Source of the DNA: a virus
Lineage: Duplodnaviria > Heunggongvirae > Uroviricota > Caudoviricetes
IMG/VR virus record: IMGVR_UViG_3300029641_000003
DNA: 64,000 nt
Reading direction: 5' to 3' (one strand)
Shown: piece after piece, positions 1-64,000 of the stretch
Numbering within the stretch: the first letter of the stretch is position 1
Layout: each line of letters starts with the position of its first letter
The notes under the pieces: model-generated
What the model saw: only the letters and a program-made list of their open reading frames with translations
Databases searched by the model: none
What the model was told of the DNA's origin: nothing
Made by a program: the position numbers and the translations under genes

Positions 1-1049
1 TGCAATGCTGCCAGTTCGAGTCCGTGTTCACGGCTCAGGTCAGATGCAGCCATAACCGTATGTTCGGATGCGATCACGTACTCCGACGGGCGCAGGGCGT
101 AATTGCGCATGGACTGGTTAATGACAGGTATCAGGTTCGGATTGCGTTCAATGTTGATTTCAACCTGAACAGCGATTTCTGTGCCTTCTGCTGGTGCTTC
201 ATTAAAGGTGATATCGATAACGCCGGTATCGTATCGAACCTTTGCCGTCACAGAGAAAGAGTTGCCGTTGACGTCTTTGTCGTTGAAATACAGGTTGCCG
301 TCACCATCATCTACTTTGGACGGTTTGCGGTTAATCAGCAGTTTGTTGTAGCCCTGGCGCAGTGGGCAGGCCTGGCCTTCGAAGTTCTGGATATCAAACT
401 GGAAGGTGGTTTTGCTGCCATCGCCTTTTTCGGTCAGGATGTACAGGCGTTTCATCTGCGAATACACTCCAGCAGACTGCATGTTCAGTTCCTCGCCCTG
501 CTCGAATGTACCGAATTTTGTACCAGCAACGTTGGTCAGCTCGTAAATATTGGTTTCATCACGATCACAAGGGATAAACGTACATGCGTCGCTGGTGGCT
601 GCGCCGAGAGAAGCAGGCAGGATCAGTGCGGCATATTGTGCAACCTTCATTACACCATCGGAGGTGCGCATGTCCTTGGCTACTGATTCAAACATGGCTT
701 TGCCAGCGCCTTCATGCGTCTCTTTAGCGGACTCCATCATCAGGCGCTCAAGTGCTACATGGGCGTTGGCTAATACATCGCTTGCCGGATAATGCCCATA
801 CTGGCGTTTGTATTCATGAATAGACATGGCCCAGCTACCAATGATCTGGCGAGCTGCTTCTGGTTCAACGCCTTCAAACATAGGCTCTTTCTGGATAGCT
901 TTTTCCAGGTTAGCCATCATCACTTCGTTGTCGGCAATCATGTTACCGGCAGCATCAGTGGTTGGATCGACGGTCATAGCCATGACGCTTGCCGCCCGAT
1001 TCATAATCTCGCGCTCGCGCTTACGAGCTGGCTCAATGTTCTTGTTCAC
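1..1049 (-). CDS. hypothetical protein, 3' end lies beyond window start (possible virion or early protein)
   Basis: Continuous minus-strand frame with no stop from GTG at 1049 (AGGG 9 nt upstream) to position 1, normal amino-acid composition; absent from ORF track because it runs off the window; the plus-strand ORFs here are antisense to it. Confidence 0.5.
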   Translation of the reverse strand, partial: MNKNIEPARKREREIMNRAASVMAMTVDPTTDAAGNMIADNEVMMANLEKAIQKEPMFEGVEPEAARQIIGSWAMSIHEYKRQYGHYPASDVLANAHVALERLMMESAKETHEGAGKAMFESVAKDMRTSDGVMKVAQYAALILPASLGAATSDACTFIPCDRDETNIYELTNVAGTKFGTFEQGEELNMQSAGVYSQMKRLYILTEKGDGSKTTFQFDIQNFEGQACPLRQGYNKLLINRKPSKVDDGDGNLYFNDKDVNGNSFSVTAKVRYDTGVIDITFNEAPAEGTEIAVQVEINIERNPNLIPVINQSMRNYALRPSEYVIASEHTVMAASDLSREHGLELAAL

Positions 1050-1129
1050 GGTTAAACCCTAAATTCGGGCGCGGCGTGAAGATTCTTTTGACGAGGTGAC
1101 AATACTCACTTTGTTATTTAGTCAATAGC

Positions 1130-1193
1130 ATTAGAAAAATAATTTTCTTTAACAAAATCGTCATGTTGTGTTTTAATCTTAATTTTCTAACAC
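1130..1193. promoter_or_regulatory. operator-like half-sites ATTAGAAAAAT and ATTTTCTAACAC in divergent intergenic region
   Basis: Members of the TGTTAGAAAAT motif family, in inverted orientation, in AT-rich spacer between two divergent genes. Confidence 0.4.
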
Positions 1194-1208
1194 ATAACAT
1201 TAGAACAA

Positions 1209-1601
1209 ATGGCGTACAAGATCTTCGTTTCATACAAAAATGGTGCTAAAAGCCATTCTCTGAACACAAGCAGCAGATGCCTTGTAGAAGCTCAACTGTC
1301 ATCAATTCTTACCGAAAGAGATATTCTTTCCCTGGCTGAACGAATCGTGATTCTGCATTCAGGAAAGGCTATTCTTGATGTTCCCGCGCTTACCTCGCCT
1401 TCTGACGTTTTGGCATCTGTTAAGTGGCCTCAAATGGGCACACCTGTAAGAGTGGAAGATCCTGTAACGACCACTCTTTATATGCCGAAGTCAGTAAGGG
1501 ATTGGCTTGCTGCGGTTGGTAATGGGAAGGTCAGCGCGGGGCTTCGGAAGCTGGTTGAAATGGCTGATATTCCGGAGCTGAAAAATGCATGGAGACAGTG
1601 A
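1209..1601 (+). CDS. hypothetical protein (130 aa)
   Basis: ATG-initiated ORF downstream of operator-like sites; no recognised domain. Confidence 0.4.
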   Translation: MAYKIFVSYKNGAKSHSLNTSSRCLVEAQLSSILTERDILSLAERIVILHSGKAILDVPALTSPSDVLASVKWPQMGTPVRVEDPVTTTLYMPKSVRDWLAAVGNGKVSAGLRKLVEMADIPELKNAWRQ

Positions 1602-1659
1602 GTATAGGAAACATGAGTAACGCGAACCCATCGAAAACACAATATCGTTTAATGCTGGC

Positions 1660-3050
1660 TATCCCTCTATCGTTGATGATTGTTTTCAGCAAACAACCGC
1701 CTTTCCTCCGCGCCCAATGCGGGCTGGAAGGAAAGGCGGAAAAGCCCACAAGGCTTTAAAAAAATCATTACGGTGTTAGCATAAAAAACCTGTATCAATG
1801 AGCCGTGACTATGTTAAGAGCAACAAAAGTACGCATCTATCCAACCACTGAACAGGCTGAGTATCTCAATGCTCAGTTCGGTGCAGTGCGTTTTGCGTAC
1901 AACAAAGCTCTTCACATCAAAAAACACGCTTACCAGCGACACGGAGTGAATTTAAGTCCGCGTAAAGATTTAAAGCCGTTGTTGTCTGTGGCGAAGAAGT
2001 CCCGCAGATATGCCTGGCTTAAAGAATTTGATTCAATGGCATTGCAACAGGCGGTAATCAATCTTGATGTGGCGTTTTCCAACTTTTTTAATCCGAAGCT
2101 GAAAGCGCGGTTCCCGACGTTTAAACGTAAACATGGGAAGCAATCGAGCTACCATTGTGTCGGGATTAAAGTACTGGAGAATGCCATCAAAATTCCTAAG
2201 CTGGCACCGATAGAAGCGCGTATACACCGTGTAATGACGGGAAAAGTGACGAGCATAACAATCACTCGCAGTGCCACCGGGAAATACTACGCATCCATCC
2301 TTTGTGAAGACGGTATTCCCACACCAGCGAAACCTGCGTATCTGGAGGAAGAAAAGATTACTGGTGTGGATATGGGACTTGAGCACTATGCCATCACTTC
2401 TGATGCTGTAAAAGTTCCGAATCCTCGCCATCTCATCAATGCCAGCCGTAATCTGCGACGCAAACAAAAAACGCTATCCCGCAAACAAAAGGGAAGCGCG
2501 AACCGTAAAAAGGCCAGAATCCGTCTTGCGGCCTTACACGAACGGGTGGCGAATGCCCGTGCTGATTTTCAACACAAGCTCTCTCGTACAATTGTTGACG
2601 AAAACCAAGCGGTAATTGTGGAGACGCTGAAAACAGCCAACATGATGAAAAGCCACAATCTGGCAAGAGCGATAGGTGATGCTGGCTGGCACAGCTTCAT
2701 CACAAAGCTGGAGTACAAGGCAGCGACAAAAGGCGTTCACCTGGTAAAACTCGACCAGTGGTTTGCCAGTTCGAAAACGTGCCATTGTTGTGGTTACAAA
2801 ATGCCGGAAATGCCACTTCATAAACGCATCTGGCGATGCCCTGAGTGTGGAGCAGAGCACGACCGCGATATCAATGCGGCACTCAACATCCGGCAAAAAG
2901 GAATACTGGAACTAAAGGCGGCGGGACTCGTCGTCTCTGCCCATGGAGGCCAGCGTAAATCCGTCGCACAGACGGTTGCGGCCTGAGAAGTGGGAATCCT
3001 CGTCCGACCGGGCGGGGAGCAGTCACGAGCCTTGATCCCCCTTCCCTTCC
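1660..3050 (+). mobile_element. IS200/IS605-family insertion element carrying tnpB only (IS1341-like); ends approximate
   Basis: Subterminal hairpin CCGCCTTTCCT...AGGAAAGGCGG at 1696-1738 upstream of tnpB; no tnpA seen; structured sequence after tnpB stop. Confidence 0.5.
1805..2986 (+). CDS. tnpB: TnpB (IS200/IS605 OrfB, RuvC-like nuclease with C-terminal zinc finger)
   Basis: 393 aa; N-terminal RIYPTTEQAEYLNAQFGAVRFAYNKAL typical of OrfB_IS605; C-terminal CHCCGYKMP...CPECGAEHDRDINAALNI zinc ribbon. Confidence 0.85.
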   Translation: MTMLRATKVRIYPTTEQAEYLNAQFGAVRFAYNKALHIKKHAYQRHGVNLSPRKDLKPLLSVAKKSRRYAWLKEFDSMALQQAVINLDVAFSNFFNPKLKARFPTFKRKHGKQSSYHCVGIKVLENAIKIPKLAPIEARIHRVMTGKVTSITITRSATGKYYASILCEDGIPTPAKPAYLEEEKITGVDMGLEHYAITSDAVKVPNPRHLINASRNLRRKQKTLSRKQKGSANRKKARIRLAALHERVANARADFQHKLSRTIVDENQAVIVETLKTANMMKSHNLARAIGDAGWHSFITKLEYKAATKGVHLVKLDQWFASSKTCHCCGYKMPEMPLHKRIWRCPECGAEHDRDINAALNIRQKGILELKAAGLVVSAHGGQRKSVAQTVAA

Positions 3051-3322
3051 CAAATCTCCCTGTTTCTTTGGTTATTCAGTGCGTTTCTTTGGTTGCATTC
3101 ATCGATAGTGCTGAATAACTGTTCAGTGTATGCCGGATACTTGTTTAACAGCACAGGCGTGTCCTCTGGCACTATGCAAGGGGTATAATCAATCAGATTT
3201 CCCTGCGGTTTGCTGGTGGCTTCTACGGTAATTTGCATTGGCACGCTGATTGATTTCTTTTGCCCGTTCCCGCTGCATCCTGATAACGTCATCAGGCACA
3301 CGCACATCATTAACCCCGGCAT
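3023..3322 (-). CDS. o-spanin (Rz1-like lipoprotein) embedded out of frame in i-spanin gene
   Basis: Internal start gives MPGLMMCVCLMTLSGC with lipobox LSGC; lies inside 3189-3647 in another frame, the classic Rz/Rz1 arrangement. Confidence 0.55.
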   Translation of the reverse strand: MPGLMMCVCLMTLSGCSGNGQKKSISVPMQITVEATSKPQGNLIDYTPCIVPEDTPVLLNKYPAYTEQLFSTIDECNQRNALNNQRNREIWEGKGDQGS

Positions 3323-3647
3323 TGCGTAACGCAGTTTCAAGACGATTGATTTCATTCTGGCTTTCCTCCCGTTGTTTGATCAGGCTGGTATTCAGTTCTG
3401 CTGTTTTGCGCTGGTACTCCTTCTCCAGTGTTTTAATTCTTTCGTTTTCAGCCATCATGGCAGATCGCGATTTTTCACTTAACTGCAATGCGGTAGAAAG
3501 CGTGTTGTTCTCGCTTTCAAGTTGTGATTTTGAGTCTTCCAGGGAACGGATATACCTGATGTGATCGATAACTGCCGCCGTAGTACGGTAAATTCCATAA
3601 ATGGCTAAAAGCGCAACTACTATCAAAATTATCTTTTTCAAAACCAT
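3189..3647 (-). CDS. i-spanin (Rz-like): N-terminal transmembrane helix plus coiled coil
   Basis: Start taken at MVLKKIILIVVALLAIYGIY (TM helix) followed by charged coiled-coil region; overlaps o-spanin ORF. Confidence 0.55.
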   Translation of the reverse strand: MVLKKIILIVVALLAIYGIYRTTAAVIDHIRYIRSLEDSKSQLESENNTLSTALQLSEKSRSAMMAENERIKTLEKEYQRKTAELNTSLIKQREESQNEINRLETALRNAGVNDVRVPDDVIRMQRERAKEINQRANANYRRSHQQTAGKSD

Positions 3648-3718
3648 CCTCTTCAGATTTTTTTGTTGGTGTGATATGTGTACCAATTTGTAACCATTTA
3701 TGGGCTTAAATGGTGTGG

Positions 3719-4513
3719 TTATGGTTCCTTTTTAGTGTTGCTTTGGAGCGCATCGATTACACCTTGTGGCATGATCAAACTGATTGCGGGACTCATTACT
3801 TCATCGCCCAGTAGAGAACCGGTTAACGTAATAGCTACAGCATTCTCCAGTCCCTGTTTGGCTTTTCCGGTAGAGTCCTTAACTTGCTGTGCAAGTGTTG
3901 AGAGACTACTGCTCGTGTTGTTTATTGCATTTATTTGTTCTGTTGCTGCTTCCACAGCGTCTTTTAGTGCTTTGATCTCTTCTTCTGTTAGTGCTGGTTG
4001 CTGTGTTGTTCCGGTGGAACTTCCGTTGCCTGAAGCCTCCCCGCTTGACGCCTGAACTTTTGCATTTATAGCGGTCATGGCTGAAGTGATTGGCTCCAGT
4101 TCAAATGCTGCCAACGCGTCAATAAGCGATTGCGGATGCAGGGTATCTCCCATAACTGTTACGAGAGCAAATTCTGGCGCAGGAGATAACTCATTACCTT
4201 TGACGTAACATTCCCAGCCAATTTTCATCTGAAGTAATTCAGTTGGCGAAGCATACGGAGACAGCGAGTCGGCTAAATTGGTTGCTTCTGCACTGACAGT
4301 TTTCAGTTGTTCTGAAAAGACAGAAAGCTGATTGACCCATGAAACCACCGACGCCGGGTATGCTTTATCCTTCAGGATAAGAGCCTGGATATTCTCTTCC
4401 AGAGAACTGGCATTGGATGACGCTGTTTTACTTAGCGTGATAGATGCAGGCGTAGTTGTACCTGATGCATTTAGAATTTTGAATGCGTTAACTTCAGCGA
4501 TTGAATCAAGCAT
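3719..4513 (-). CDS. hypothetical Ala/Ser/Thr-rich protein (264 aa)
   Basis: Start overlaps stop of upstream PAAR gene (ATGA), so co-transcribed; no recognised motif. Confidence 0.45.
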   Translation of the reverse strand: MLDSIAEVNAFKILNASGTTTPASITLSKTASSNASSLEENIQALILKDKAYPASVVSWVNQLSVFSEQLKTVSAEATNLADSLSPYASPTELLQMKIGWECYVKGNELSPAPEFALVTVMGDTLHPQSLIDALAAFELEPITSAMTAINAKVQASSGEASGNGSSTGTTQQPALTEEEIKALKDAVEAATEQINAINNTSSSLSTLAQQVKDSTGKAKQGLENAVAITLTGSLLGDEVMSPAISLIMPQGVIDALQSNTKKEP

Positions 4514-4797
4514 TATGACACCTGAAAAATTGCCTCACCATTGGCGATGACTGAGCCACAAGAAAGGGGATCTCCCACACAAACAACTCCTTTCCCGCCT
4601 ATTGCAAACCATGAGCGCGTCGATACGGCTGATCCGGGGTGCGCGCTATTTCCGTCTGTATGGCTGGGGAACGCTCCCCCATCTACAACTACTGGCTTTC
4701 CATTTACGGTAAACCAGGAAACTGTTTCTGCTACAGGTCGCGGAGGGAATCCTCCATGACCAGAACAAACTGTGTCACTGGTCGCTATTGCACTCAT
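4513..4797 (-). CDS. PAAR-domain spike-tip protein
   Basis: 94 aa with PAAR-like repeats: DTVCSGHGG, VNGKPVVVDGG, AIGGKGVVCVGDPLSCGS. Confidence 0.6.
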   Translation of the reverse strand: MSAIATSDTVCSGHGGFPPRPVAETVSWFTVNGKPVVVDGGAFPSHTDGNSAHPGSAVSTRSWFAIGGKGVVCVGDPLSCGSVIANGEAIFQVS

Positions 4798-4859
4798 CTA
4801 ACACCTCCTTTTTCTTAAATCTTCTCCACTTTGTGATTTTCACTCTTCAGATTTCTTAC

Positions 4860-4965
4860 TTCTCATATTTGTCTCTGATTTGTCTCAAAAGGGTATCATG
4901 GGTACATCATGTATCATCTAAGTCTCTTTTGTGTCTCTTTTACGTCTCTAGTTTGATGCTTTTTA
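4860..4965. repeat. parC-like centromere iterons upstream of parM
   Basis: TGTCTC-containing units at about 11-bp spacing (TTGTCTCTGATTTGTCTCA; AAGTCTCTTTTGTGTCTCTTTTACGTCTCT), resembling R1 parC organisation. Confidence 0.45.
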
Positions 4966-5046
4966 CGCTATCTAACTTCTGGTCTTATTTTGTTTTCTCA
5001 TATAAAATTCAATTCTTTCTCAAATGTGTCTCAGAAGTGGAGCAAT

Positions 5047-6006
5047 ATGATGCGCATTTTTATCGACGATGGTTCTACCAATATCAAAATGCTGTGGGAA
5101 CAAGACGGGGAAACTCGAACCCATATCTGTCCGAACAGTTTTAAACGTGGATGGTCCGCCACATTTGGCGCAGGAAAGCCGTTTAACTACATCATTGATG
5201 ACGAAAAATATTCATATGACTTGATTTCGCCGGATGTGCTGCCGACGAATAATGTGGAATGGCAATACAGCCCGCTTAATGTGCTTGCTGTTCATCATGC
5301 CCTGCTTACAAGTGGCATTGAGCCTCAAGAAGTGGAAATAGTTGTCACGTTGCCACTGGCAGAGTTTTATGACGACGACGCACAATACAACATGAAAAAT
5401 ATTGAGCGGAAAAAGGCCAGCCTGATGCGACCAGTCACCCTTAACAAAGGTCAGGTTTTTACTATCAAAAAAGTGACTGTGCGCCCGGAGTCAATACCCG
5501 CAGGGATCGGTCTGTGCGACAGCCTTGTGCCAGCGCATTCTGTGCTTATTGTTGATCTTGGTGGGACTACTCTGGATGTGTCGATGGTCGCCGGGCAAAT
5601 GACCGCCGTTTCTCGCGTATTTGGCGATTCTAATCTCGGCGTTTCGCTGGTAACTAAAGAGGTCAGACAGGCACTTGCAAAAGCGAATACCGAAACCTCT
5701 AATTATAATGTCGATCAATTAATCATTAATCGTGATGATGAGGATTATTTGACCGACAATATTAACGATCCGTCTGCTATTGATGATGTTAAGAAAGCCA
5801 TTTCGTCAAGCATAGAACGACTCCGTACACGCGTACTGGATGTGATCAGTGATTTCAAAGGATACACGCATGTTATGGTCATTGGTGGCGGCGCGCCGCT
5901 TGTTGCTGATGCTATCCGTGAGCAGGTAAACATTCGTGACGATAGGTTTTTTGTTGCTGATGATCCACAACTTGCTCTTGTCTATGGTCTAAAATCTATC
6001 GGTTGA
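5047..6006 (+). CDS. parM: ParM/StbA actin-like plasmid segregation ATPase
   Basis: Start MMRIFIDDGSTNIK with GGAG upstream; recalled R1 ParM similarity along the length (SPNSFKR, WQYSPLNVLAVHHALLTSG, NIERKKA, GYTHVMVIGGGA). Confidence 0.85.
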   Translation: MMRIFIDDGSTNIKMLWEQDGETRTHICPNSFKRGWSATFGAGKPFNYIIDDEKYSYDLISPDVLPTNNVEWQYSPLNVLAVHHALLTSGIEPQEVEIVVTLPLAEFYDDDAQYNMKNIERKKASLMRPVTLNKGQVFTIKKVTVRPESIPAGIGLCDSLVPAHSVLIVDLGGTTLDVSMVAGQMTAVSRVFGDSNLGVSLVTKEVRQALAKANTETSNYNVDQLIINRDDEDYLTDNINDPSAIDDVKKAISSSIERLRTRVLDVISDFKGYTHVMVIGGGAPLVADAIREQVNIRDDRFFVADDPQLALVYGLKSIG

Positions 6007-6016
6007 TGAGGTTGCC

Positions 6017-6382
6017 ATGTCTCAGGAACGTCGAAAAGTATTGTTTTATCTTCGTCCTGGTCTTAACGCCAGTGAGCAATATGCTGATGCAAAACTTGAG
6101 GGCCATCCATTAAGAGATCGCAATGATATGGCGCGCACAGCGATGCTTGCAGGTATCGCTCTTGGCGAGGTTGATAGCAGATTACCTCCCATGTTGGCAT
6201 CGCTTTTATCCGGTGATAATAGCCCTGAAGTGATCAGAAAAATGCTGGTTTCATTTCTTGAAATTTCGCCTGAAGTTCGGGAAAACCCTGAAGGAAACCC
6301 CTCTGCCTCAGCGGATGTTAAAAAACCTGGCGTTTCGAAAAGCCGCTCTGCACAGAATTTGGCAAACTCACTCCCTGATTAA
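6017..6382 (+). CDS. parR: ParR/StbB-like centromere-binding adaptor
   Basis: 121-aa ORF immediately after parM; N-terminal RKVLFYLRPGLNASEQ...RTAMLAGIALG resembles R1 ParR. Confidence 0.6.
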   Translation: MSQERRKVLFYLRPGLNASEQYADAKLEGHPLRDRNDMARTAMLAGIALGEVDSRLPPMLASLLSGDNSPEVIRKMLVSFLEISPEVRENPEGNPSASADVKKPGVSKSRSAQNLANSLPD

Positions 6383-6399
6383 CAAATCTACATCTTCAA

Positions 6400-6424
6400 A
6401 GGCTGCAATTTGCAGCCTTTTTTA
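6400..6424 (+). terminator. intrinsic terminator after parR
   Basis: AGGCTGCA-ATT-TGCAGCCT hairpin followed by TTTTT. Confidence 0.6.
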
Positions 6425-6439
6425 TACTGTTATGGTTCT

Positions 6440-6660
6440 AATTTGGTGCTCTTTTAGTACCAAAATGGTGTTGTTGTGGTGCTGTTTTGTGTCTGGTTCC
6501 ACTTTGAGGCTGATTTCGTGTTAAACAGGATGCAACAGAGGGCAAATTTCGAGTGTTTAGTGTTATACTTTTGCAAAGCATAGTGACTCCACTATAGAGC
6601 CAAAACCGCATCAATAAGGCTTCTGTTTGGAACCATTTTGATACCAAAATAACACCGAGG
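6440..6660. repeat. centromere-like repeat cluster upstream of parA
   Basis: TTTTAGTACCAAAATGGTGTTGTT and GGTTCCA...TTTGAGGCT motifs, repeated again downstream of parG at 7595-7665. Confidence 0.4.
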
Positions 6661-6667
6661 GACGGAT

Positions 6668-7309
6668 ATGATTATATTGGTAGCCAGCCAAAAAGGTGGC
6701 TGTGGCAAATCAACCACCAGCGTAAACATTTGTGCGGAGCTTGCCCGCGCAAATAAGGACGTAGTTCTACTTGATGCAGATAAGCAAGGAACATCTGCCC
6801 GTTGGGCATCGGACCGTAATGCGGCAGAGGTTTCTCCAGTAATTCATTGCGTCCAGAAGTTTGGGAATATTCGTGAAACACTTCTTGATCTGGACAAGCG
6901 TTATGAATTTGTGGTTGTTGATACCGCTGGTCGTGATAGCAAAGAGATGCGCACCGGTATTACTGCGGCGGATGTTTTGCTTGTTCCATTCAGGCCATCT
7001 CAGCCAGATTTAGACACGCTGGCGCATTTTGTTGAAGTCTTTGAAGAGGCTTTGGATCTGATGCCTAATCCTAGCATTAAGGCGTGCGCAGTTTTAACAA
7101 TGGCCCCATCCAATCCGGTTGTGAATGAAGCCAATGAGGCCAAAGAGTACCTGGCTGAATATCCGCAACTGAAGTTGCTGAAAACCATCATTCGCGATCG
7201 CAAGGTTTACCGCGATTGTATGGCTGAAGGGAAGGGCGTTGTTGAGATGGACAACGGGAAAGCTAAAGGTGAAATCCAGATGTTGGTTAAGGAGTTATTA
7301 AGTGATTAA
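6668..7309 (+). CDS. parA: ParA/ParF-type small Walker ATPase (type Ib partition)
   Basis: 213 aa; deviant Walker A SQKGGCGKST at N-terminus, VVVDTAGR Walker B region. Confidence 0.85.
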   Translation: MIILVASQKGGCGKSTTSVNICAELARANKDVVLLDADKQGTSARWASDRNAAEVSPVIHCVQKFGNIRETLLDLDKRYEFVVVDTAGRDSKEMRTGITAADVLLVPFRPSQPDLDTLAHFVEVFEEALDLMPNPSIKACAVLTMAPSNPVVNEANEAKEYLAEYPQLKLLKTIIRDRKVYRDCMAEGKGVVEMDNGKAKGEIQMLVKELLSD

Positions 7310-7589
7310 GCCTCGTAAATCGGTAAAAGCCCCCGAAGTAAAAGACCTCGATCTTGAACGCCGAATTGAGGCTTTTGCCAGCAAAGCTGATTTGGTGCCG
7401 GGTGAGCAACCAGAAGACAACAAAGTGCTCGATAAGGACGCCCCACGTGATTTTAAATCCATTCGTGTTGGCTTCAATGAATACGAGTACCAGGTACTTG
7501 ATGCGTTAAGCAAAAAGCATAATCGCAGCAAATTGAATATGATCCGCCATGCTATCCTCATGCTTGCAGAGTCTGAGGATACAAAATGA
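7302..7589 (+). CDS. ParG-like ribbon-helix-helix centromere-binding protein
   Basis: 95-aa ORF with GTG start overlapping parA stop; C-terminal RHH-like segment IRVGFNEYEYQVLDALSKK...MIRHAILMLAE. Confidence 0.5.
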   Translation: MIKPRKSVKAPEVKDLDLERRIEAFASKADLVPGEQPEDNKVLDKDAPRDFKSIRVGFNEYEYQVLDALSKKHNRSKLNMIRHAILMLAESEDTK

Positions 7590-7594
7590 CGCTG

Positions 7595-7665
7595 GAATGA
7601 CACCGTTTTGGTTCCATGTGTTATTTTGAGGCTACTTTGATTCCTTTTTAGTACCAGAATGGTGT
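7595..7665. repeat. second copy of centromere-like repeats flanking parA-parG
   Basis: GGTTCCATGTGTTATTTTGAGGCT and TTTTAGTACCAGAATGGTGTTGTT match motifs at 6440-6660. Confidence 0.4.
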
Positions 7666-7700
7666 TGTTAGTGTACCGTAACGGTGCTTGTTTGATGTTA

Positions 7701-10213: not shown

Positions 10214-10216
10214 AAT

Positions 10217-55731: not shown

Positions 55732-55738
55732 TCACACT

Positions 55739-56643: not shown

Positions 56644-56867
56644 CAGTGAGCCTCCGCAATGCCGGGATTGGTAATATTGCGATACCAGGGATTAGTGTTT
56701 GGTTGTGGGGAAGTAGAGAAACGACCAGTGAGAACGCCATACTGATCAGGGATCAGAGAACGGGCTTCTTTTTCAGTTGCGGCAATTGCGAAGTGATCAC
56801 AATGTTTTTGCAGGGAGTGGAAACGCCAGATGAATTCTGGGCGTGAGCAATGATTGGCATTAACCAT
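56643..56867 (-). CDS. Icd-like small protein, copy 2
   Basis: EFIWRFHSLQKH...AATEKEARS, paralog of 20233-20448; start of ant overlaps its stop. Confidence 0.5.
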   Translation of the reverse strand: MVNANHCSRPEFIWRFHSLQKHCDHFAIAATEKEARSLIPDQYGVLTGRFSTSPQPNTNPWYRNITNPGIAEAH

Positions 56868-57196
56868 AGTTACGGCCTCGTAAGTTGATAAACAACCTGC
56901 GACCCGCTGTCAAACAGGTGGCAGGACGTGACAGGGTTGACAGACTGGCACTTACGAAACCAGCAGGCCGAAGCCTCCCCATCACGCCCCACCATAATTC
57001 GGGCGTAACGTGGTTTTACGGACACAAAAATACCGCAATATCGGAAATGTGCGGTTGTCCGCGTAAGTATTCAGGCTGTCAAACCTGGTCGCAGAATTTG
57101 CTACGACGGCATGAATATAAGCCTGAACATTAGAAAGATCAACAGAATTTTTATCAAATGCTGTTTTTTAGTGACAATGTAAATCATACATTCTTG
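56868..57196 (-). other. structured untranslated leader, copy 2 (candidate c4-like RNA region)
   Basis: No ORF; hairpin CCGCA...TGCGG followed by U-run ending TTTTTGTGTC, the same tail as in copy 1. Confidence 0.3.
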
Positions 57197-57226
57197 ATTA
57201 GAAACATCAATTTAATTTTCTAACAT
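57197..57226. promoter_or_regulatory. operator pair ATTAGAAACAT ... TTTTCTAACAT
   Basis: Inverted motif-family half-sites at head of immI-like copy 2. Confidence 0.45.
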
Positions 57227-57282
57227 AGATTTTCGAGCGATGAAATTCCCGCCGCACGGTTATTGTACAGTCAATCGCAACA

Positions 57283-58242
57283 TCATCCCCGAAAGCCCTC
57301 CGGAATTGACCAGTCTTCCCGGTCAAATTCAGACCGATAGCCACGCTGTATCATCAGGTCAAATGCTTCATTGATGGTTGCACATCCCTGGGAACCAGAA
57401 TAATCCATAGAGAAATCCAGGGCGCTGGATCGTTTGGGCTTATTCACTGTGGTAGCACTACGTAACCATGCAAATTTTTTTGCCAGTTTTTCAGCGGTAC
57501 GATACAGAGCCTGCCGTTTTGCGTACCCCTCGTCTGAACGACGCTTTGCAGCTCTCGCTTTTGCTGCCGCCAGGCAGTGGTTGGTATGTTCTTCCCTGAT
57601 TACTGTTTTTTTATCCAGCAAGCCATTATCCGCTTGAGAACTATCTGCTGGTGAAGCCTTTGGCTGAACCGCGCATGATCTTTCTCTTCTTTTGGCTATA
57701 GAGTGACTCTTATTTTCTATTGGCTGTTCATTTTGAACATGGGGGGGCTTGTTCAATTTGAACAGGGGGTTCCCAGTTTCAAAAAAATAACGAACCTTTG
57801 AAATCAACTGCTTAACCAGTTTTGTGGCGTTGGCAAATTTGATGCCCTGCTTACTCCCTATCTCCATTGCTACATGAATGAAGTGGAGAAATTGTGTTGT
57901 AAACCGGTACACGTTACACACCTGAGCATTGTTATTCGCTACCTGATGCTGCTTAACAAGCATTCCGCACTTCGTCGCTTCGGCAAATGCCCGGCGCACA
58001 GTAGAAATACTGCGTCCTGTAATCTCGGACATATCCGCATATGAGCGACGGATCATGTATTCATCGGTAGCTCCTGCCAGGTTGGCGAACTCGGCAATAA
58101 TGGCGCTATGTGAAGGGGAAAGAAAACCGCTATGACGAGCAAAAAAACTCAACTGATGACCTTTGATTTTTTTGTGGTATTCAGTGTTGTTTTTATACTC
58201 AGAAGTGTTGAAAGTAACTGAAACTGAATTTAAAATACTCAC
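57283..58242 (-). CDS. putative replication/regulatory protein with HTH (RepL-like by position)
   Basis: 319 aa; HTH MSEITGRSISTVRRAFAEATKCGML; operator 170 bp upstream; adjacent to immI-like module as kilA-repL is in P1. Confidence 0.3.
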   Translation of the reverse strand: MSILNSVSVTFNTSEYKNNTEYHKKIKGHQLSFFARHSGFLSPSHSAIIAEFANLAGATDEYMIRRSYADMSEITGRSISTVRRAFAEATKCGMLVKQHQVANNNAQVCNVYRFTTQFLHFIHVAMEIGSKQGIKFANATKLVKQLISKVRYFFETGNPLFKLNKPPHVQNEQPIENKSHSIAKRRERSCAVQPKASPADSSQADNGLLDKKTVIREEHTNHCLAAAKARAAKRRSDEGYAKRQALYRTAEKLAKKFAWLRSATTVNKPKRSSALDFSMDYSGSQGCATINEAFDLMIQRGYRSEFDREDWSIPEGFRG

Positions 58243-58412
58243 CAGATAGTTCCGTGAAAAATCTATCTACCGTATAAATCTATGCCAGTGGATTTATACA
58301 CCCAAAAGCCGCTACTCAGCGGCTTTTGCTTTTTTTGGCAGTCGCTACCGGAGCAGTGACCGCGATCCTACTCGATCACGTGCCGTCGGATCAACAGTGT
58401 ATAAAAACACAC

Positions 58413-58425
58413 TGTGTTAGAAAAT
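58413..58425. promoter_or_regulatory. operator half-site TGTGTTAGAAAAT
   Basis: Exact 13-bp motif between pro-like stop and RepL-like start. Confidence 0.45.
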
Positions 58426-58441
58426 TAAGCTATCTTTTAGC

Positions 58442-59440
58442 TCACATCCTCTTAGACACAAAGATCAGCGGAGTCACCGTCTTGTTCTCTTTCACCGGTA
58501 TTTCTTGTTGTTTATTGGCTGATATTGGCAGACCATAAGTGGCATTAGCCCCCAGGGATTCAAGCATCGCTGCAACAATGCGTGCATCATCCTCTGACTG
58601 CATACGGCAGAGCGCCCGGCGCTGTTCTGTGCTGATAAAAACAGGCATTTCCTGGATAGCATCACGCAAAATACGGCGGCATTTCTTCGCGTTCTCCCCC
58701 TGGCTTTCCATCATCGCGGCCTGGTCGCGTAGTTTGTCGCGAAGCTGCATATTTTCCACTTCAAGATGTATCAGTTCCGACTCCAGAACTTCACGTTGTG
58801 CTGATTCGAGTATGGCTTGCTGACTCTTCATTGCTGAAAAGTGGTGAACCAGATCCGTAGCAGCATTATCGGTAAAACCTTGTTCGATAAGTGCCGCATG
58901 AATCGCCGCGTCGCGTTCTTCTGCTGATTCAAGCATCAGGCTTTTCTTGTCGAGGCTGATATAGTTAGGCACAGTTACGTAATCAAAACCGTGAAAAGAC
59001 TTTACCAGGGATACAGAGTAATCTGGACCAGATGTAGCCCATGACCAACCACCTGCGCCAGAATTAATCATACCCTGAACAATACGTCCGGTGTCCGTAT
59101 CCAGTATTTCCTGTGTATGGGTAACAATGCCGTTGTCGTCAATTGAAATGTCGATAGTCCTGTTTGACGGCACGTTCTCCAATACAACAGGCTTCCCATC
59201 TACCATCACAACAGAGACTTCCGGCAAGTCCAGGCTTTTCGTTTTGTTATAGTGCATCGCCCGGCGACCATGACCGTAATAACCATACATCTCACCCAGT
59301 GCGATACGCTCTTTTGTTTCTGGCGAGTTGAATGTGTCTCGTACCGACTGGATAACGTAATTGCGATTGTTCTGAGGTGTGTGTTTGCGGATTTTCTCTA
59401 CCAGGGAGAAGCGATCCGTAACGGTATTCAGTGATTGCAT
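58442..59440 (-). CDS. hypothetical morphogenesis protein (possible prohead protease/scaffold by position)
   Basis: 332-aa ORF directly downstream of portal-like gene. Confidence 0.35.
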   Translation of the reverse strand: MQSLNTVTDRFSLVEKIRKHTPQNNRNYVIQSVRDTFNSPETKERIALGEMYGYYGHGRRAMHYNKTKSLDLPEVSVVMVDGKPVVLENVPSNRTIDISIDDNGIVTHTQEILDTDTGRIVQGMINSGAGGWSWATSGPDYSVSLVKSFHGFDYVTVPNYISLDKKSLMLESAEERDAAIHAALIEQGFTDNAATDLVHHFSAMKSQQAILESAQREVLESELIHLEVENMQLRDKLRDQAAMMESQGENAKKCRRILRDAIQEMPVFISTEQRRALCRMQSEDDARIVAAMLESLGANATYGLPISANKQQEIPVKENKTVTPLIFVSKRM

Positions 59441-59453
59441 TATTTCCCTCCGG

Positions 59454-61139
59454 TTAATTATTGCTCATCACAAATTTTGCAAAGTTGATTAATTGTTCTT
59501 GCGTCCAGTTTTCCGGATCGTCACCGGACGACAACGGCGCGGATTCGTACATACCATGCTCGTTGTTTTGCTCTGATTCATTCGCCTTAAACTCTTTGAT
59601 CATTACGTTGAGAGTGTCATCGTCGATACGAAGCTGTTCGGTGAACAGATAACGCATAAACGCGTCGCTACCCGCCAGTTTCGGGTTGTTCTGGATCTGG
59701 TCCATTATTTGCGAGATGACAGCTACGAAGTTGGCGCGCGCATCCAGCTCTCGGTTTTCCTCTTCCTGGATAGCTGTATTCATTGAGTTGAATTGCACGT
59801 CATAAGGACGGTTTTTTTCGGTGTAAACCTTCCCGTATTTATAAGCGAGGTGAATGTCATGAAGCCGATAAATAGTCCGCTGGGCGGCCTGTCTGATCCA
59901 GTTCGCGCGTAATGCGGCCTGGATAGCTGTTTGCTGCCAACCGCCTTCTCCAAGTCCACCACTCATCTGATCAGCCCAGCCAAGCATTGTTGCGTCAATA
60001 CCGAGGCTTGCCGCGAGCTGTCGGAGATGAAACATAACGTCTTCGATACCACTGATATCTGCGGGTATAGATTGCGTATCAATGGTGATCCCGTTCTTCC
60101 CATCCCCCATGACGGGTATCAGATGGTTAAGTACAGATGGGAGAGCATTAGAATTAATCGACCGTTGCGCTACGAGGTCGCTATGACGCTTCAGTGCCTG
60201 GCTGACCCCGCGCGTATAATTCGCCGCGTTTACCGGATCTATCGTGTTCGTTGTGAGTGCAATCAGGCGATCAATTTTTGCAGCGTTGTTTCGCGTTGCT
60301 TTCAGCGCAGCAAGCGCGGCACATAAATTCAGGTAGGGTTCATAACTGTATTCAAGAAACGACGTACCGTAGTTCTGCGTCTCCATTAACGGCTTGTCCT
60401 GCTGTTCACTAAGCAAGGAATAGCCTTTAGTGCCGTAAGTTACTGGCATTACTTTATGCTGAGGCGTCCAGTACGGGTTTTTCATGGAAACCAGATTCCA
60501 CGGTTCGGTTATAACTCTGCGCAAAGTATGCGTATCCAGAATGTAATCACCGCTGAATCCGACAAGTTGGCTACCGCGATAAAACTCCTGAACGAAATGA
60601 GGGAGCGTGTAATAGCTCGACTCAATTCCAGTTATCCCCTTCCCTTGCTCTGCATATGGACGGATATACGACACACCGAAAATAGCCATGATCATGGCCC
60701 ACGATGGAAGGCCATCATTAATCATTGAGCTTAAATCAGCGGTCAATTCCTCACATCGACTTACAGCCTCCTTATCCGCCCCATTTTTCGGCGCGAGAAT
60801 AAATGCGAGGCCTGTTTTTTTTGATGGAGCCAGAGAATGCGCAATGTGAATGTTTAATGCTGTGGAGATAGTCGGACTTTTCGCCATCGTCTCCAGTATG
60901 TTGTATTTTTGCAGGCGGTCACTCGGTAATTCTGCCGATATAGATACTGTATCCGCCGCGCTTGTCATGCCATCGCTATTGCTCCCCAGGATGCCAGGAC
61001 GCAAGGCGGACAGGCCAGAACGAGCAACGACGCTATGCCCGCTCGCAAATACGACCGGATCGGCAGGCGTAACATCACCACCGCTGAAGGCTTTCTTCAA
61101 TGCCGACAGAAAGCCCTTGTTTTTGTCTTTCGTTGCCAT
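59454..61139 (-). CDS. portal-like protein
   Basis: 561 aa, size and position typical of a portal (prt) gene; no motif verification possible. Confidence 0.4.
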   Translation of the reverse strand: MATKDKNKGFLSALKKAFSGGDVTPADPVVFASGHSVVARSGLSALRPGILGSNSDGMTSAADTVSISAELPSDRLQKYNILETMAKSPTISTALNIHIAHSLAPSKKTGLAFILAPKNGADKEAVSRCEELTADLSSMINDGLPSWAMIMAIFGVSYIRPYAEQGKGITGIESSYYTLPHFVQEFYRGSQLVGFSGDYILDTHTLRRVITEPWNLVSMKNPYWTPQHKVMPVTYGTKGYSLLSEQQDKPLMETQNYGTSFLEYSYEPYLNLCAALAALKATRNNAAKIDRLIALTTNTIDPVNAANYTRGVSQALKRHSDLVAQRSINSNALPSVLNHLIPVMGDGKNGITIDTQSIPADISGIEDVMFHLRQLAASLGIDATMLGWADQMSGGLGEGGWQQTAIQAALRANWIRQAAQRTIYRLHDIHLAYKYGKVYTEKNRPYDVQFNSMNTAIQEEENRELDARANFVAVISQIMDQIQNNPKLAGSDAFMRYLFTEQLRIDDDTLNVMIKEFKANESEQNNEHGMYESAPLSSGDDPENWTQEQLINFAKFVMSNN

Positions 61140-61371
61140 GATTCACCGCAAAAGGTTTCCGATTTCGTGGCAGCTTATCCAGTGTGTGATTTCATCAGTA
61201 ATTTTTCGTTGTTTTCACTATTTGCTGATGTTTTTTCATATGCGGAAATGCTTTTCCAAAAACGCAACCACTAAACAAAGAAGTTATGTTTATAAACATT
61301 TTTGTTGTGTTTTATATCTTTTGTGTTATTATCCTTGTCGCCCATGATGGATAAATTGCATAAGGAAACTT

Positions 61372-61554
61372 GTGAAGTATTCAGAGTTCAAACGCTGGTT
61401 AATCCAGCAAGGGGCAGAGTTCAGGAAAGCGCCAGGTGGCGGCAGTCATCAGAAAGTGAACCTGAACGGAAAGCGGTCGGTTTTCCCGGACCACGGTTCA
61501 AAGGAAATGCCTGAACCGCTACGCAAGAAAATAATGAAGGACCTGGGGCTTTAA
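61372..61554 (+). CDS. hicA: HicA mRNA interferase toxin
   Basis: 60 aa, GTG start after AAGGAA; FRKAPGGGSHQK...FPDHGSKEMPEPLRKKIMKDLGL fits HicA. Confidence 0.7.
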   Translation: MKYSEFKRWLIQQGAEFRKAPGGGSHQKVNLNGKRSVFPDHGSKEMPEPLRKKIMKDLGL

Positions 61555-61584
61555 GCCCCAGCCTTTTTCACTAGGAGCTTCTCT

Positions 61585-62016
61585 ATGTTTAACTATCCGG
61601 TAAAACTGGAGCGCGACGACAAAACCGGCGCGTATGTCGTATCATGCCGCGACCTACCATTGTTTAATTCCGTGGGTGACTCAGTTGAAGAAGCGTTGCT
61701 TGAGGCTGGTTATGGATTGGTCGCAGCGGTTGCGATTGAGATTGAAGAACGCCGACCTGTTCCCACTGGTAGCGAGCCAAAAGAAGGTGAGTACGTTGTC
61801 TCTTTGCCAGTGCTACCAGCAATGAAGGCTGCACTCCACAACGCGATGATAGAAACCGGCACACGCAAAGCAGAGTTGGCGCGCAAACTCGGCAAAAATG
61901 GAACACAGATTGATCGGCTTCTCGACGTCGAACATTCATCGAAAGTTGAAACTGTCGAGCTGGCACTGCATCAACTGAATAAAAATATCGCCGTATCTGT
62001 CACACCAATGCGGTGA
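61585..62016 (+). CDS. hicB: HicB antitoxin
   Basis: 143 aa; N-terminal MFNYPVKLERDDKTGAYVVSCRDLP HicB fold, C-terminal HTH-like TRKAELARKLGKNGTQIDRLL. Confidence 0.7.
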   Translation: MFNYPVKLERDDKTGAYVVSCRDLPLFNSVGDSVEEALLEAGYGLVAAVAIEIEERRPVPTGSEPKEGEYVVSLPVLPAMKAALHNAMIETGTRKAELARKLGKNGTQIDRLLDVEHSSKVETVELALHQLNKNIAVSVTPMR

Positions 62017-62128
62017 CTGCTCCCCGCCCTGGCTGGGCGAGGATTTACGGGGTATTTGTTAAAAACGCTCTATTCAAAGAAGAAATACCGAATCCCCCGG
62101 AGGTTATCCGGGGTGTCCGGTCGCCAGG

Positions 62129-63514
62129 TCAGGTTTCCAGCCCAAAATCGCTTTGTTCTGTTTTGGCTTCGAACATCGTGAAGTTAAGCCCTTTCCCCTC
62201 TCCATGTTCCAGTTCAATCTCATTAGAAACAGCGGTCAAAATACTACGTAGATCAACATCTCCACCGCCGAACATATCGCCCAACGCCTGCTGTTTATGA
62301 ATCAGTTCGTCGTTGATTTTTTGTGCCATTTTTTTGAATGCAGCCCCCATGCGCTTCGCGCTTCGATTATTTGCCACGATGAATAGCGCCAACGCCTCAG
62401 CTTCCGGCGTGCTATCACCGAAGAGTCCGCGCTGGGCTATCACCTCTTCCACTGCCTGACCGTTGTCTTTGGCTTCACGAACAAGGTTAATCGCGTCCTG
62501 GAGTGCTGCTATAGCCTGTTTATCCAGACCGTTCACCTGCTCTATACCATCAACCAGACCAGTTACAGCATCATGATGTGCATCGCCAGAAATCGACTGC
62601 ATTTGCGCAAAGTCACTGGCTGCTGTATTAAGCGCGGTCAGGATATTGCGCATTTCCGGATCCGGTTCTTCCGCCACAAGCCGAACAAGTCGCTCATCCT
62701 TATAGGCTTTGGCAAAAATCGCATTCTGAATGCGATCGATAAGCTGTTTCGTTGGACGTCCATCGGCTGTAAGCAAACCTGCCGTCGCGGTATCGCCTAT
62801 TTCGTGCAAAAACGCACGAATAAACGCATCATTGGACCGCGCCAGTAGATTTCCATCATCTGAAGGATTAAATAGCGCCATGACGCTCTCAGTGAGAAAT
62901 TGCGCATCCGCATACGCTTTCTCACTTGCAGCCATCTCTTGCAGATCGCTGATGTTTGAGTCGCGTGCAAATTGAGCACGATCAACGTCAGTGAGGCGCT
63001 CGCGAACCAGTACAGGCATCACCATTGCCCTGACGTCTTCGGGATTAAGGCCAAACTCTTTAGCGTGATCGATAAGATATTGTCGGTAATCTTCAGCCTG
63101 CCCTTGTTCATAAGCACGCCAGATTCCCATGCTTCGACCATTACCAGACTCAACGACATTATCCGGACCAACAATCGGGGAACCATGACTACTCATACCC
63201 GAATCAGTGAGTTGTGCCGGGCGTAAATTGGCGGCGATACGGTTAACCTGGAGCTTGCTTGACAGTCGGGTGCGATCGCGAGGCTGGAGTTCCTCCGGAA
63301 ATGACGGATTTATACTTCCGTCCAGGTTGTTAGAAATGATGAGCTTTTTGGCATCAATAACCTTGAACGCTGTTTTAACTTCGTCGCCTTTGCTGGTGAC
63401 GACATAGCTGCTACGCCCCAACTTCGTCTCTTGCTTTTCAAGAGATGACACCACAGCGATAACCCCCTCAATGTTCGCTGCGGCCAAAAGTGCTGATGTT
63501 ACGTTTTGAGTCAC
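62129..63514 (-). CDS. hypothetical protein (461 aa), possibly virion-associated
   Basis: Long ATG ORF convergent with hicAB; acidic, helix-rich. Confidence 0.45.
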   Translation of the reverse strand: MTQNVTSALLAAANIEGVIAVVSSLEKQETKLGRSSYVVTSKGDEVKTAFKVIDAKKLIISNNLDGSINPSFPEELQPRDRTRLSSKLQVNRIAANLRPAQLTDSGMSSHGSPIVGPDNVVESGNGRSMGIWRAYEQGQAEDYRQYLIDHAKEFGLNPEDVRAMVMPVLVRERLTDVDRAQFARDSNISDLQEMAASEKAYADAQFLTESVMALFNPSDDGNLLARSNDAFIRAFLHEIGDTATAGLLTADGRPTKQLIDRIQNAIFAKAYKDERLVRLVAEEPDPEMRNILTALNTAASDFAQMQSISGDAHHDAVTGLVDGIEQVNGLDKQAIAALQDAINLVREAKDNGQAVEEVIAQRGLFGDSTPEAEALALFIVANNRSAKRMGAAFKKMAQKINDELIHKQQALGDMFGGGDVDLRSILTAVSNEIELEHGEGKGLNFTMFEAKTEQSDFGLET

Positions 63515-63605
63515 AATTAACCACCTTTCTGTAAAAAAGGCAGTGTAAAAAGTGTGTTATTTCGGTGACTATTTTAAGAAGAAAGGGGCATTCTGCCCCT
63601 TTCTT

Positions 63606-63977
63606 TCACGCTGCATACCCGTTAGCTGAAACCCAGTTTACGGTCTGTTCTTTGGCCTGGTCGAGTGTCAAAAATTCACCAATATATTGAGATATGCCTC
63701 TCAAAGCATCGATGAACTCCATTTGTGATGATTTAGTAAATGCACCACTAAGGAAGTCAGCAACAATTTTAGGCGTTTCTTGTGCCGCCGGTTGCACTTC
63801 CTCTTCTTGCTGTTGTGCTGGATTATTCGATGAACCAAGCCCCAGCTTCATCATCACTTCAACTATCCGCACGCCAATAGTGACACGTTGTACCGCAGTC
63901 GCGCTTTTTTGCGCTGACATCAGCTCAGACAGTTCTTTGCCTAAGCTAAGGCGCTCCGTTACTGATATTTTCACCAC
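63606..63977 (-). CDS. hypothetical protein (123 aa)
   Basis: ATG ORF followed by hairpin AAAGGGGCA-TTC-TGCCCCTTT at 63582-63602. Confidence 0.4.
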   Translation of the reverse strand: MVKISVTERLSLGKELSELMSAQKSATAVQRVTIGVRIVEVMMKLGLGSSNNPAQQQEEEVQPAAQETPKIVADFLSGAFTKSSQMEFIDALRGISQYIGEFLTLDQAKEQTVNWVSANGYAA

Positions 63978-64000
63978 ACGCCCCCTTGTTGTATCTCTGC

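Follow-up and report, generated by a model that had tools for sequence, protein, structure and literature searches.

A 64-kb stretch of a D6-like phage-plasmid with two C4-icd-ant modules and exchangeable cargo cassettes

Overview of the window

The window analysed here is a whole stretch of 64,000 nucleotides (nt) from the Caudoviricetes record IMGVR_UViG_3300029641_000003, which starts inside a major capsid gene and ends at ddrA/darA. Between these points lie genes for head processing, portal, terminase, tail and baseplate, maturation control, lytic replication and antirestriction, the Dre recombinase with its rox site, a c1 repressor gene, two partition loci, four toxin-antitoxin (TA) pairs, four tRNA genes and two immunity modules of the immI type, each consisting of a C4 RNA, icd and ant (Table 1). 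Phage D6, reportedly described by Gilcrease and Casjens in 2018, is said to be the prototype of the P1-g2 subgroup, and we can conclude with high confidence that the window represents some 64 kb of a temperate myovirus of roughly 90 kb, maintained as a low-copy plasmid and belonging to this D6 lineage rather than to P1 or P7. A previous sequence-only reading had regarded the same DNA as a P1-like mosaic with shuffled synteny and a high load of addiction and accessory modules.

Relationship to D6, P1 and other phage-plasmids

When the window was compared in three thirds with 50,697 phage records by megablast, the only long match was Escherichia phage D6, which aligned on the same strand throughout (window 6-25000 to D6 53031-83415, 36567-50000 to 150-14050 and 50001-63773 to 14051-27959). 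P1, P7, RCS47 and SJ46 matched in short pieces only, located in the humD-phd-doc, c4/icd and tRNA regions. A local blastn search with the whole window as query against D6, NZ_CP104667.1 and P1 as concatenated references gave 24 monotonic high-scoring segment pairs on one strand for D6, covering 79% of the window at a mean identity of 85% (73-98%), 13 collinear pairs for NZ_CP104667.1, covering 92% at 97.3%, and 13 pairs of mixed orientation for P1, covering 11% at 76%. At the protein level 61 reciprocal-best orthologues are shared with D6 (median 87% amino acid (aa) identity), and the sole change in their order is a local swap of orf102 and orf103 in the early accessory block, where an unrelated gene of 170 aa separates the DUF4014 gene (the orf103 homologue), which comes first, from the orf102 homologue (24579-25894). 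The window is equivalent to D6 53031-91159 plus 1-28136, or about 73% of a D6-type genome, and the D6 genes expected in this region are all present as full-length open reading frames (ORFs) with 58-99% aa identity, including the persistent genes for portal, PacB, PacA, gp25, DarB and RepL. Where the window departs from D6, it does so only at cargo hot spots at which cassettes are exchanged, among them the TA pairs, the sim-locus, the ea-like genes, the tRNA/tci region, glnS and the tnpB insertion. By analogy with P1, D6 and Gifsy-1, C1 would repress the lytic genes in the lysogen, and plasmid stability would likewise, by analogy, rest on the two par loci, Dre/rox and the four type II TA pairs.

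Some points weigh against this assignment and should also be mentioned. About 21% of the window has no alignment to D6, and identity in the remainder varies between 73 and 98%; the element must therefore be regarded as a distinct sublineage and not as D6 itself. Furthermore, the window lacks glnS and tciAB, both of which D6 and the Salmonella D6-like plasmids carry, and the RepB-family replicon (initiator at 45841-46596 in D6 and 10106-10861 in CP104667), the tail fibres, the sheath, the lysis genes and cin lie beyond it. The D6 features were taken from the GenBank annotation (NC_050154 / MF356679), and inducibility as well as the functions of the TA, par and immI loci are here predicted from the genes alone.

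A first alternative is a defective remnant of a D6-like plasmid that has lost the ability to produce phage. Such variants do exist, as illustrated by a 75-kb Salmonella variant without baseplate, tail-fibre and lysis genes (PMC6799933), and the tnpB element has indeed destroyed orf53 while one third of the genome falls outside the window, but portal, pro, pacAB, lpa, repL, mat and the tail genes are all found as full-length ORFs, the closest plasmids are 90-94 kb and complete, and orf53 is a small gene of unknown function, which makes this explanation unlikely. It is highly improbable that we are dealing with a recent hybrid of a D6-like phage-plasmid with other phages or plasmids, having a new chimeric backbone: although identity to D6 varies by segment, patches of the early block are 92-97% identical to phiV10-, Stx- and P1-like phages, and A-type c4-icd modules also occur in P1-like contigs, the backbone order is unbroken, the non-D6 DNA is found only in hot-spot cassettes (18 segments of 0.15-2.5 kb, 12.4 kb in total), and other D6-like plasmids carry most of these cassettes at the corresponding sites. 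The description as a mosaic relative of P1 holds for the accessory regions and for the relationship as such, but not for the backbone, which keeps the D6 order.

Least credible among the P1-related readings, and bordering on the impossible, is a P1/P7-type punavirus that was rearranged in the window element itself. Sequences akin to P1 are certainly present, with humD-phd-doc 93%, the c4-B region 84-94% and the tRNA-Ile/Thr/Asn regions 84-88% identical to P1, and the sequence-only reading correctly noted that P1 homologues occur in a non-P1 order, since the 30 reciprocal-best orthologues (median 46% aa identity) fall into 15 blocks with 14 breakpoints. It also rightly pointed out that ref lies far from the cre homologue (13.4 kb, as opposed to 0.6 kb in P1) and that portal is separated from darB, with the CHAP gene, ant/icd/C4, repL and pro in between. 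However, every rearrangement relative to P1 is common to D6 and dozens of plasmids, and in the D6 annotation ref and dre are 14 kb apart, darB and portal have a lysozyme-like gene, ant, icd, repL and pro between them, and there are a ParM/StbA locus and a ParA-like locus, the icd-ant pairs orf18/19 and orf82/83, and a hig-type TA pair besides phd/doc. The ref/cre gap, the darB/portal gap, the two par loci and the two icd-ant modules are therefore traits of the D6 family, diagnostic of its layout and not novelties, and the shuffled synteny cannot be upheld as a property of this element, whose gene order is the conserved D6 layout from end to end. Moreover, the rox site is located between the Dre gene and the D6-type c1, no loxP and no P1-type C1 operator consensus were found in the window at up to 3 mismatches, c1 had no BLAST match to P1 C1 and no Pfam or NCBIfam match, and P1 parAB, repA, ban, ssb and res/mod have no homologues within the window. 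That the element is neither P1 nor P7 is thus in full agreement with the earlier view, and a rearranged P1/P7 is refuted by the collinearity with D6. An affinity to SSU5, which had been put forward for comparison, is refuted by the SSU5 sequence, as its first 100 kb have 350 bp in common with the window by blastn and five domain-level tblastn matches (ParA, the Ant N-terminal domain twice and one accessory family twice) and share no structural or replication genes.

The D6 assignment agrees with a published subdivision in which D6-like elements form the subgroup P1-g2 of Pfeifer et al. 2021, clearly apart from P1-g1, with wGRR of about 0.75 within subgroups and 0.23 between them (PMC7969092). 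With regard to near-identity to a characterised phage-plasmid, the window is collinear with D6 but only about 85% identical over 79% of its length, and collinear matches of 97-99% were obtained only with uncharacterised plasmids such as NZ_CP104667.1 and NZ_LR890273.1; no record identical to the window was found among 5,426 complete E. coli genomes or in PLSDB. The main value of these comparisons lies in correct classification: in E. coli, Shigella and Salmonella the D6-like phage-plasmids are frequent, and they can readily be mistaken for a rearranged P1.

The two immI modules

Both of the proposed immI-like modules contain a C4 RNA above the Rfam gathering score (RF01695 / CL00128; threshold 45) followed by icd and a Rha-type ant, and in both the icd stop and the ant start share one base and the ant product matches Phage_pRha. 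In module A the C4 RNA scores 77.1 bits and is preceded by an isrK-type leader carrying a1/b1 (62.7 bits), which is closed by a terminator-like hairpin with a T-run at about 20655-20634, so that in this module the leader fits the isrK model and the downstream RNA fits the C4 model. Module B, which adjoins repL, has a C4 RNA of 69.6 bits and an upstream c4-a1b1 element of 55.2 bits. The a' and b' loops of each C4 are perfectly complementary to the a1/b1 and a2/b2 targets of their own module over 7 and 8 nt. In module A, a' GTTCCAA faces a1/a2 TTGGAAC (20687-20681 and 20498-20492) and b' CCTTTGAC faces b1/b2 GTCAAAGG (20670-20663 and 20467-20460), and by direct reading b2 overlaps the icd Shine-Dalgarno sequence AAGGAGG, 12 nt upstream of the ATG. 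In module B, a' CTGTCAA, as in P1, faces TTGACAG, and b' CGTAAGT, which is CACTAAC in P1, faces ACTTACG, b1 and b2 being altered along with b' relative to P1. No 7-mer of the a' or b' loop of either C4 is complementary to the targets of the other module, and the two switches are therefore in all likelihood independent.

The C4 RNA of module B is 100% identical to that of D6 and 94% identical to that of P1. Module A is different in this respect, since a comparison of window 20420-20760 with D6 75150-75490 shows that over 340 bp the two sequences are nearly identical outside a1, b1, b', a', a2 and b2 and that the changes are all compensatory, the D6 alleles being TTGAGAC/GTCTCAA and GCAAAAGG/CCTTTTGC. 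On the predicted pairings this amounts to a natural C4 specificity switch. The alleles were followed in public viral contigs by using the conserved stems of C4-A as anchor, which gave 73 copies, from 71 IMG/VR loci (L007-L077), the window and D6. There are two alleles of a and two of b, and all four combinations circulate, in 25, 20, 19 and 7 copies. Three-way complementarity is perfect in 71 of the 73, and the exceptions, L048 and L054, are recombinants in which the mismatch is found only at a1. D6-type flanks were seen at about 26 surveyed loci, where the allele combination of the window is the commonest (15), and a P1-like context is found at about 42 of the 71 IMG/VR loci (median alignment to P1 73%), although no A-type C4 exists in the reference P1.

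The P1 record annotates the C4 target sites and functions, and by analogy with P1 C4 each C4 would silence its own ant in the lysogen through pairing of a'/b' with a2/b2 over the icd ribosome-binding site, while the a1/b1 leader would, as in the case of Gifsy-1 IsrK, modulate the control of icd/ant. With its three-way compensatory substitutions and four circulating allele combinations, module A provides a clean natural case of antisense-RNA specificity switching. It is conceivable, if rather doubtful at present, that the two C4 modules constitute a combinatorial immunity code in which the a- and b-alleles of module A are freely reassorted and this module moves between D6-like and P1-like elements. 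If so, the window element would be heteroimmune to D6 at immI-A and homoimmune at immI-B. The immI alleles, together with the orphan antitoxins described below, bear on incompatibility and superimmunity between co-circulating phage-plasmids.

Toxin-antitoxin and partition loci

The high addiction load proposed for the element is borne out, as four TA pairs and one orphan antitoxin are found against two pairs in D6. Two of the pairs occupy gaps between structural genes. In the gp7/gp25 gap (window 13541-14290) a HigB gene stands directly upstream of orf72, an HTH_3 gene, and replaces orf70/71 of D6, whereas D6 (67413-68641) and CP104667 have RelE and HigA (orf70/71) here and keep orf72 without an adjacent toxin; the HigB version of the cassette recurs in LR890273 and other D6-like plasmids. 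The gp26/mat gap holds a three-gene operon of a Gp49 toxin, an HTH_3 antitoxin and an orphan HigA, the latter two genes overlapping by 4 nt. In pEC361_3 a HigA identical to this one in 89 of 93 aa forms a pair with a RelE/ParE toxin, and the homology between the window and pEC361_3 ends exactly at the HigA start. Among the 5,426 complete E. coli genomes no match to the Gp49/HTH_3 cassette reached a query coverage of 80%. From this arrangement it appears that in both gaps a TA pair has displaced only the neighbouring toxin and left an orphan antitoxin behind. Turnover of TA cassettes at fixed hot spots leaves orphan antitoxins, and it may, as a separate and equally tentative idea to that of the immunity code, be a general course of evolution at these sites that a new pair displaces only the resident toxin. 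If this is true, orphan antitoxins (HigA here and orf72 in D6) could be anti-addiction genes directed against competing D6-like plasmids. The hicAB pair takes the place of orf23/orf24 of D6, as evident from a blastn gap, and is also found in CP104667.

The presence of two partition systems was likewise correctly perceived, one of them being ParM/StbB-like and the other consisting of a small ParA with orf61. Upstream of parM there are two clusters of 11-bp-spaced repeats with the core GTCTC, which resemble a parC centromere and may serve as one. The ParA of the second locus is a small Walker-type protein of 213 aa and its 95-aa partner orf61 matches no Pfam or NCBIfam family. Both loci are presumed to function in partition. 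There is no replicon gene near either of them, and partition and replication are described as located apart in P1-g2 (PMC7969092).

Accessory genes and cargo hot spots

The DNA of the window that is missing from CP104667 amounts to 5.1 kb. The IS element noted previously corresponds to an insert of 1359 bp that takes the place of 395 bp of orf53 and is absent at this site from both D6 and CP104667. There is no room in it for tnpA and it is therefore tnpB-only, with complete TnpB domains, and presumably a non-autonomous member of its family. Related copies occur in 718 of the 5,426 E. coli genomes, and the closest (92-95%, the best 95.2%) are all on plasmids of 85-113 kb. Between orf61 and dam (7590-7724) glnS is lacking, seen as a blastn gap against D6 59657-61610, and since it is missing from CP104667 too, glnS must be variable within the D6-like group. 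At the sim-locus, where P1 and D6 have their superimmunity genes, two adjacent genes for predicted exported proteins with, by a heuristic, clear Sec-type signal peptides replace the simB-like orf79/orf80 of D6, again as a blastn gap, and by their position these proteins are candidates for superinfection exclusion; they had no matches in Pfam, NCBIfam or PADLOC. Several signal-peptide proteins had been noted, and a crude heuristic indeed points to four candidates (17900-18505, 18526-18918, 27033-27434 with a lipobox, and 27996-28205) as well as to an N-terminal membrane anchor at 3189-3647(-).

The small early and accessory genes form the most mosaic part of the window, with patchy blastn matches to D6, CP104667 and lambdoid or phiV10-like phages, and several of the ea-like ORFs match no Pfam or NCBIfam family. 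For the cargo ORFs that were searched, PHROGs returned only families of unknown function, and PADLOC recognised no known defence system among ten such ORFs. In place of pdcA there is a degenerate paralogue of the N-terminal ATPase half of PacB, present in CP104667 and absent from D6. It reads HKS for GKS in Walker A and DA for DE in Walker B, lacks the nuclease half and has an unrelated C-terminal stretch of 100 aa; sequence searches of Pfam, NCBIfam and PDB returned nothing for it. Two separate Tad2-like proteins (anti-Thoeris, DUF2829) are encoded in this one element, and D6-like elements from 232 clinical isolates have been described of which 93% carry Tad2 (bioRxiv 10.1101/2025.09.12.675607).

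The tRNA(CAT) is identical in 75 of 76 positions to P1 trnI, annotated as tRNA-Ile2, the ARAGORN call of Met being a naive reading of the anticodon. The segment that carries it replaces tciAB. The identity of this tRNA was thus correctly recognised in the sequence-only reading, but its position beside tRNA-Thr/Asn is scarcely a difference from P1, as the distance is 0.96 kb with tRNA-Ser in between against 1.4 kb in P1. Between tRNA-Ile2 and tRNA-Ser lies a sub-threshold Rfam match to the small RNA STnc100 (42911-43106(-), 43.7 bits against a gathering score of 47). The type II tRNA-Ser(UGA) at 43198-43282(-) scores on the tRNA-Sec model (44.6 against 47) and not on the general tRNA model, and the D6 annotation also records that tRNAscan-SE failed to call tRNA-Ser. 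An ORF at 43951-44436(+) is probably no gene, having no family match and lying in a non-coding region homologous to P1.

Table 1. Features of the window, with coordinates, strand and the basis for each assignment
Feature	Coordinates	Strand	Basis
Major capsid protein gene (P1 gp23 homologue), N-terminal part, cut by window start	1-1049	-	aligns to D6 major capsid gene 53031-54074 and CP104667 16584-18281
tnpB-only IS200/IS605-family element (tnpB 1805-2986)	~1664-3022	+	Pfam OrfB_IS605, Cas12f1-like TNB, HTH_OrfB_IS605
upfB and upfC (PAAR) homologues	3719-4797	-	blastp to D6 and P1
Type II partition locus: 11-bp iterons 4861-4948, parM 4990-6006, stbB/parR-like 6017-6382	4861-6382	+	Pfam StbA_N/ParM, Plasmid_stab_B; 94% aa to D6 orf58
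Second partition locus: palindromic repeats 6442-6466 and 6626-6650, ParA 6668-7309, orf61 7302-7589	6442-7589	+	Pfam AAA_31/MipZ/CbiA/ParA; 96% aa to D6 orf60
Dam-type methyltransferase, second methyltransferase-like gene, rdgC/hrdC	7725-10213	-	Pfam MethyltransfD12; blastp
Tail/baseplate genes 5, 6, 24, 7	10264-13558	-	78-85% aa to D6, 22-45% to P1
TA pair 1: HigB-family toxin 13568-13927, HTH_3 antitoxin 13931-14290 (= D6 orf72)	13568-14290	+	PF09907 116.8 bits; HTH_3
Tail genes 25 and 26	14325-15843	-	96% and 92% aa to D6
Three-gene operon: Gp49/DUF891 toxin 16513-16860 and HTH_3 antitoxin 16214-16513 (TA pair 2), orphan HigA 15936-16217	15936-16860	-	Pfam Gp49, HTH_3; ORFs
mat (maturation control)	16966-17619	-	88% aa to D6, 33% to P1
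Two predicted exported proteins	17900-18505, 18526-18918	+	PHROG 12786, 13864 (unknown function); signal-peptide heuristic
immI module A: leader 20635-20713, C4 20503-20590, a2/b2 20498-20460, icd 20233-20448, ant 19292-20233	19292-20713	-	Rfam, Pfam Phage_pRha, complementarity
ref (recombination enhancement nuclease)	21260-21877	-	92% aa to D6, 54% to P1
Small early/accessory gene block: DUF4406, Ea22-like, DUF4014, pmgU/DUF551-like, lipoprotein, others	21953-29000	+	blastp; PHROGs of unknown function
hot, humD, phd/doc	29439-31228	+	90-98% aa to P1 and D6; 93% nt to P1
TA pair 3: phd 30627-30848, doc 30848-31228	30627-31228	+	PhdYeFM; blastp
Degenerate paralogue of PacB N-terminal ATPase half, 368 aa	31264-32370	-	34% identity, aa 7-263 vs PacB 8-264; PHROG 5902 (unknown function)
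isaA, Tad2-like (33164-33826), dut, orf116 and orf117 homologues	32351-35161	-	blastp; Pfam Tad2-like 80 bits
Dre tyrosine recombinase	35234-36262	-	94% aa to D6 Dre, 42% to Cre; Pfam
rox site, 32 bp, TAACTTTAAATAATGCCAATTATTTAAAGTTA	36415-36446		exact match to D6 rox
c1 prophage repressor, D6 type (true start probably downstream of 36581)	36581-37681	+	81% aa to D6 c1
pacB, pacA (terminase), lpa (late promoter activator)	37719-40980	-	92%, 74%, 82% aa to D6
orf5 homologue and second Tad2-like protein (41468-42043)	41088-42043	-	blastp; Pfam Tad2-like 40 bits
tRNA cluster: Ile2(CAT) 42498-42573, Ser(TGA) 43195-43281, Thr 43530-43605, Asn 43608-43682	42498-43682	-	ARAGORN, Rfam
pmgS, pmgR, pmgM (VRR-NUC), ulx, darB (48236-55084)	45028-55084	-	91-99% aa to D6; darB 98% over 2278 aa
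CHAP-domain/TIGR02594-type protein	55222-55707	+	Pfam CHAP; 98% aa to D6 orf16
immI module B: a1/b1 57082-57062, C4 56914-56999, a2/b2 56913-56879, icd 56643-56867, ant 55936-56643	55936-57120	-	Rfam, Pfam Phage_pRha, complementarity
repL (lytic replication), pro (head processing), portal (59454-61139)	57283-61139	-	94%, 92%, 94% aa to D6
TA pair 4: hicA 61372-61554, hicB 61585-62016	61372-62016	+	Pfam HicA_toxin (PF07927) 38.4 bits, HicB-like_2 49.2 bits
ddrB and ddrA (Dar antirestriction operon); darA cut by window end	62129-63977	-	90% and 65% aa to D6

Comparison with known systems

P1 and P7 have the same lifestyle and the same types of module as the window element, namely C1 immunity, C4-controlled icd-ant, RepL, PacAB headful packaging, Lpa late activation, Dar antirestriction, phd/doc, resolution by a tyrosine recombinase and tRNA genes. 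Unlike P1/P7, the window has Dre/rox instead of Cre/lox, a different C1, ParM and a small ParA instead of ParAB, and a second immI module, and it lacks EcoP1 res/mod, ban and ssb. In Gifsy-1 an RNA of about 80 nt is processed from the isrK-orf45-anrP read-through mRNA, and a short terminated leader RNA acts on this mRNA in trans (PMC4825925). The modules of the window resemble P1/P7 C4 and Gifsy-1 IsrK-orf45-AnrP in the predicted processing to an antisense RNA of roughly 80 nt whose two loops pair with duplicated targets, a terminated leader with upstream copies of the targets, and a small ORF translationally coupled to the antirepressor, and the change of specificity by compensatory substitutions is reminiscent of P1/P7 C4 heteroimmunity. 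They differ from these systems in that two modules with predicted orthogonal specificities, read here from sequence only, coexist in one element.

Salmonella D6-like plasmid prophages (pYU39_89 and relatives) are more closely comparable. The ST213 plasmids carry parM/stbB/parA, phd-doc together with higAB, four tRNAs and glnS (PMC6799933), and the prophages thus share with the window both the partition genes and the combination of phd-doc with a hig-type TA pair, as well as a set of four tRNAs, one of which has the anticodon CAT, and variability close to the simB locus (PMC6799933). They are about 83-84% identical at the nt level over about 74% of the first 25 kb of the window, and carry glnS and tciA. 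D6 itself has the same gene order, rox site, Dre, two par loci and two c4-icd-ant modules, along with phd/doc, the Dar genes, tRNA-Ser/Thr/Asn and an identical C4-B. The immI-A specificity alleles of the two differ, glnS, tciAB, the simB-like orf79/orf80, orf73 and orf23/24 are found in D6 and not in the window, and hicAB, Gp49/HTH_3 with the orphan HigA, HigB, tRNA-Ile2, the tnpB element and the PacB-like paralogue are found in the window and not in D6.

The closest relatives are the E. coli and E. marmotae plasmids NZ_CP104667.1, NZ_LR890273.1, NZ_CP056699.1 and NZ_CP099353.1, which are collinear with the window at 97-99% nt identity and share with it hicAB, the PacB-like paralogue, the sim-locus genes, the lack of glnS and identical C4-A and C4-B. 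They differ at the hot spots, having no tnpB at orf53, no Gp49/HTH_3-HigA operon and other ea-like genes, and CP104667 furthermore has RelE/HigA in place of HigB and a tRNA set of Ile, Ser, Thr, Tyr and Arg. Nearly identical plasmids have thus already been sequenced, and the element is an additional member of the D6-like group.

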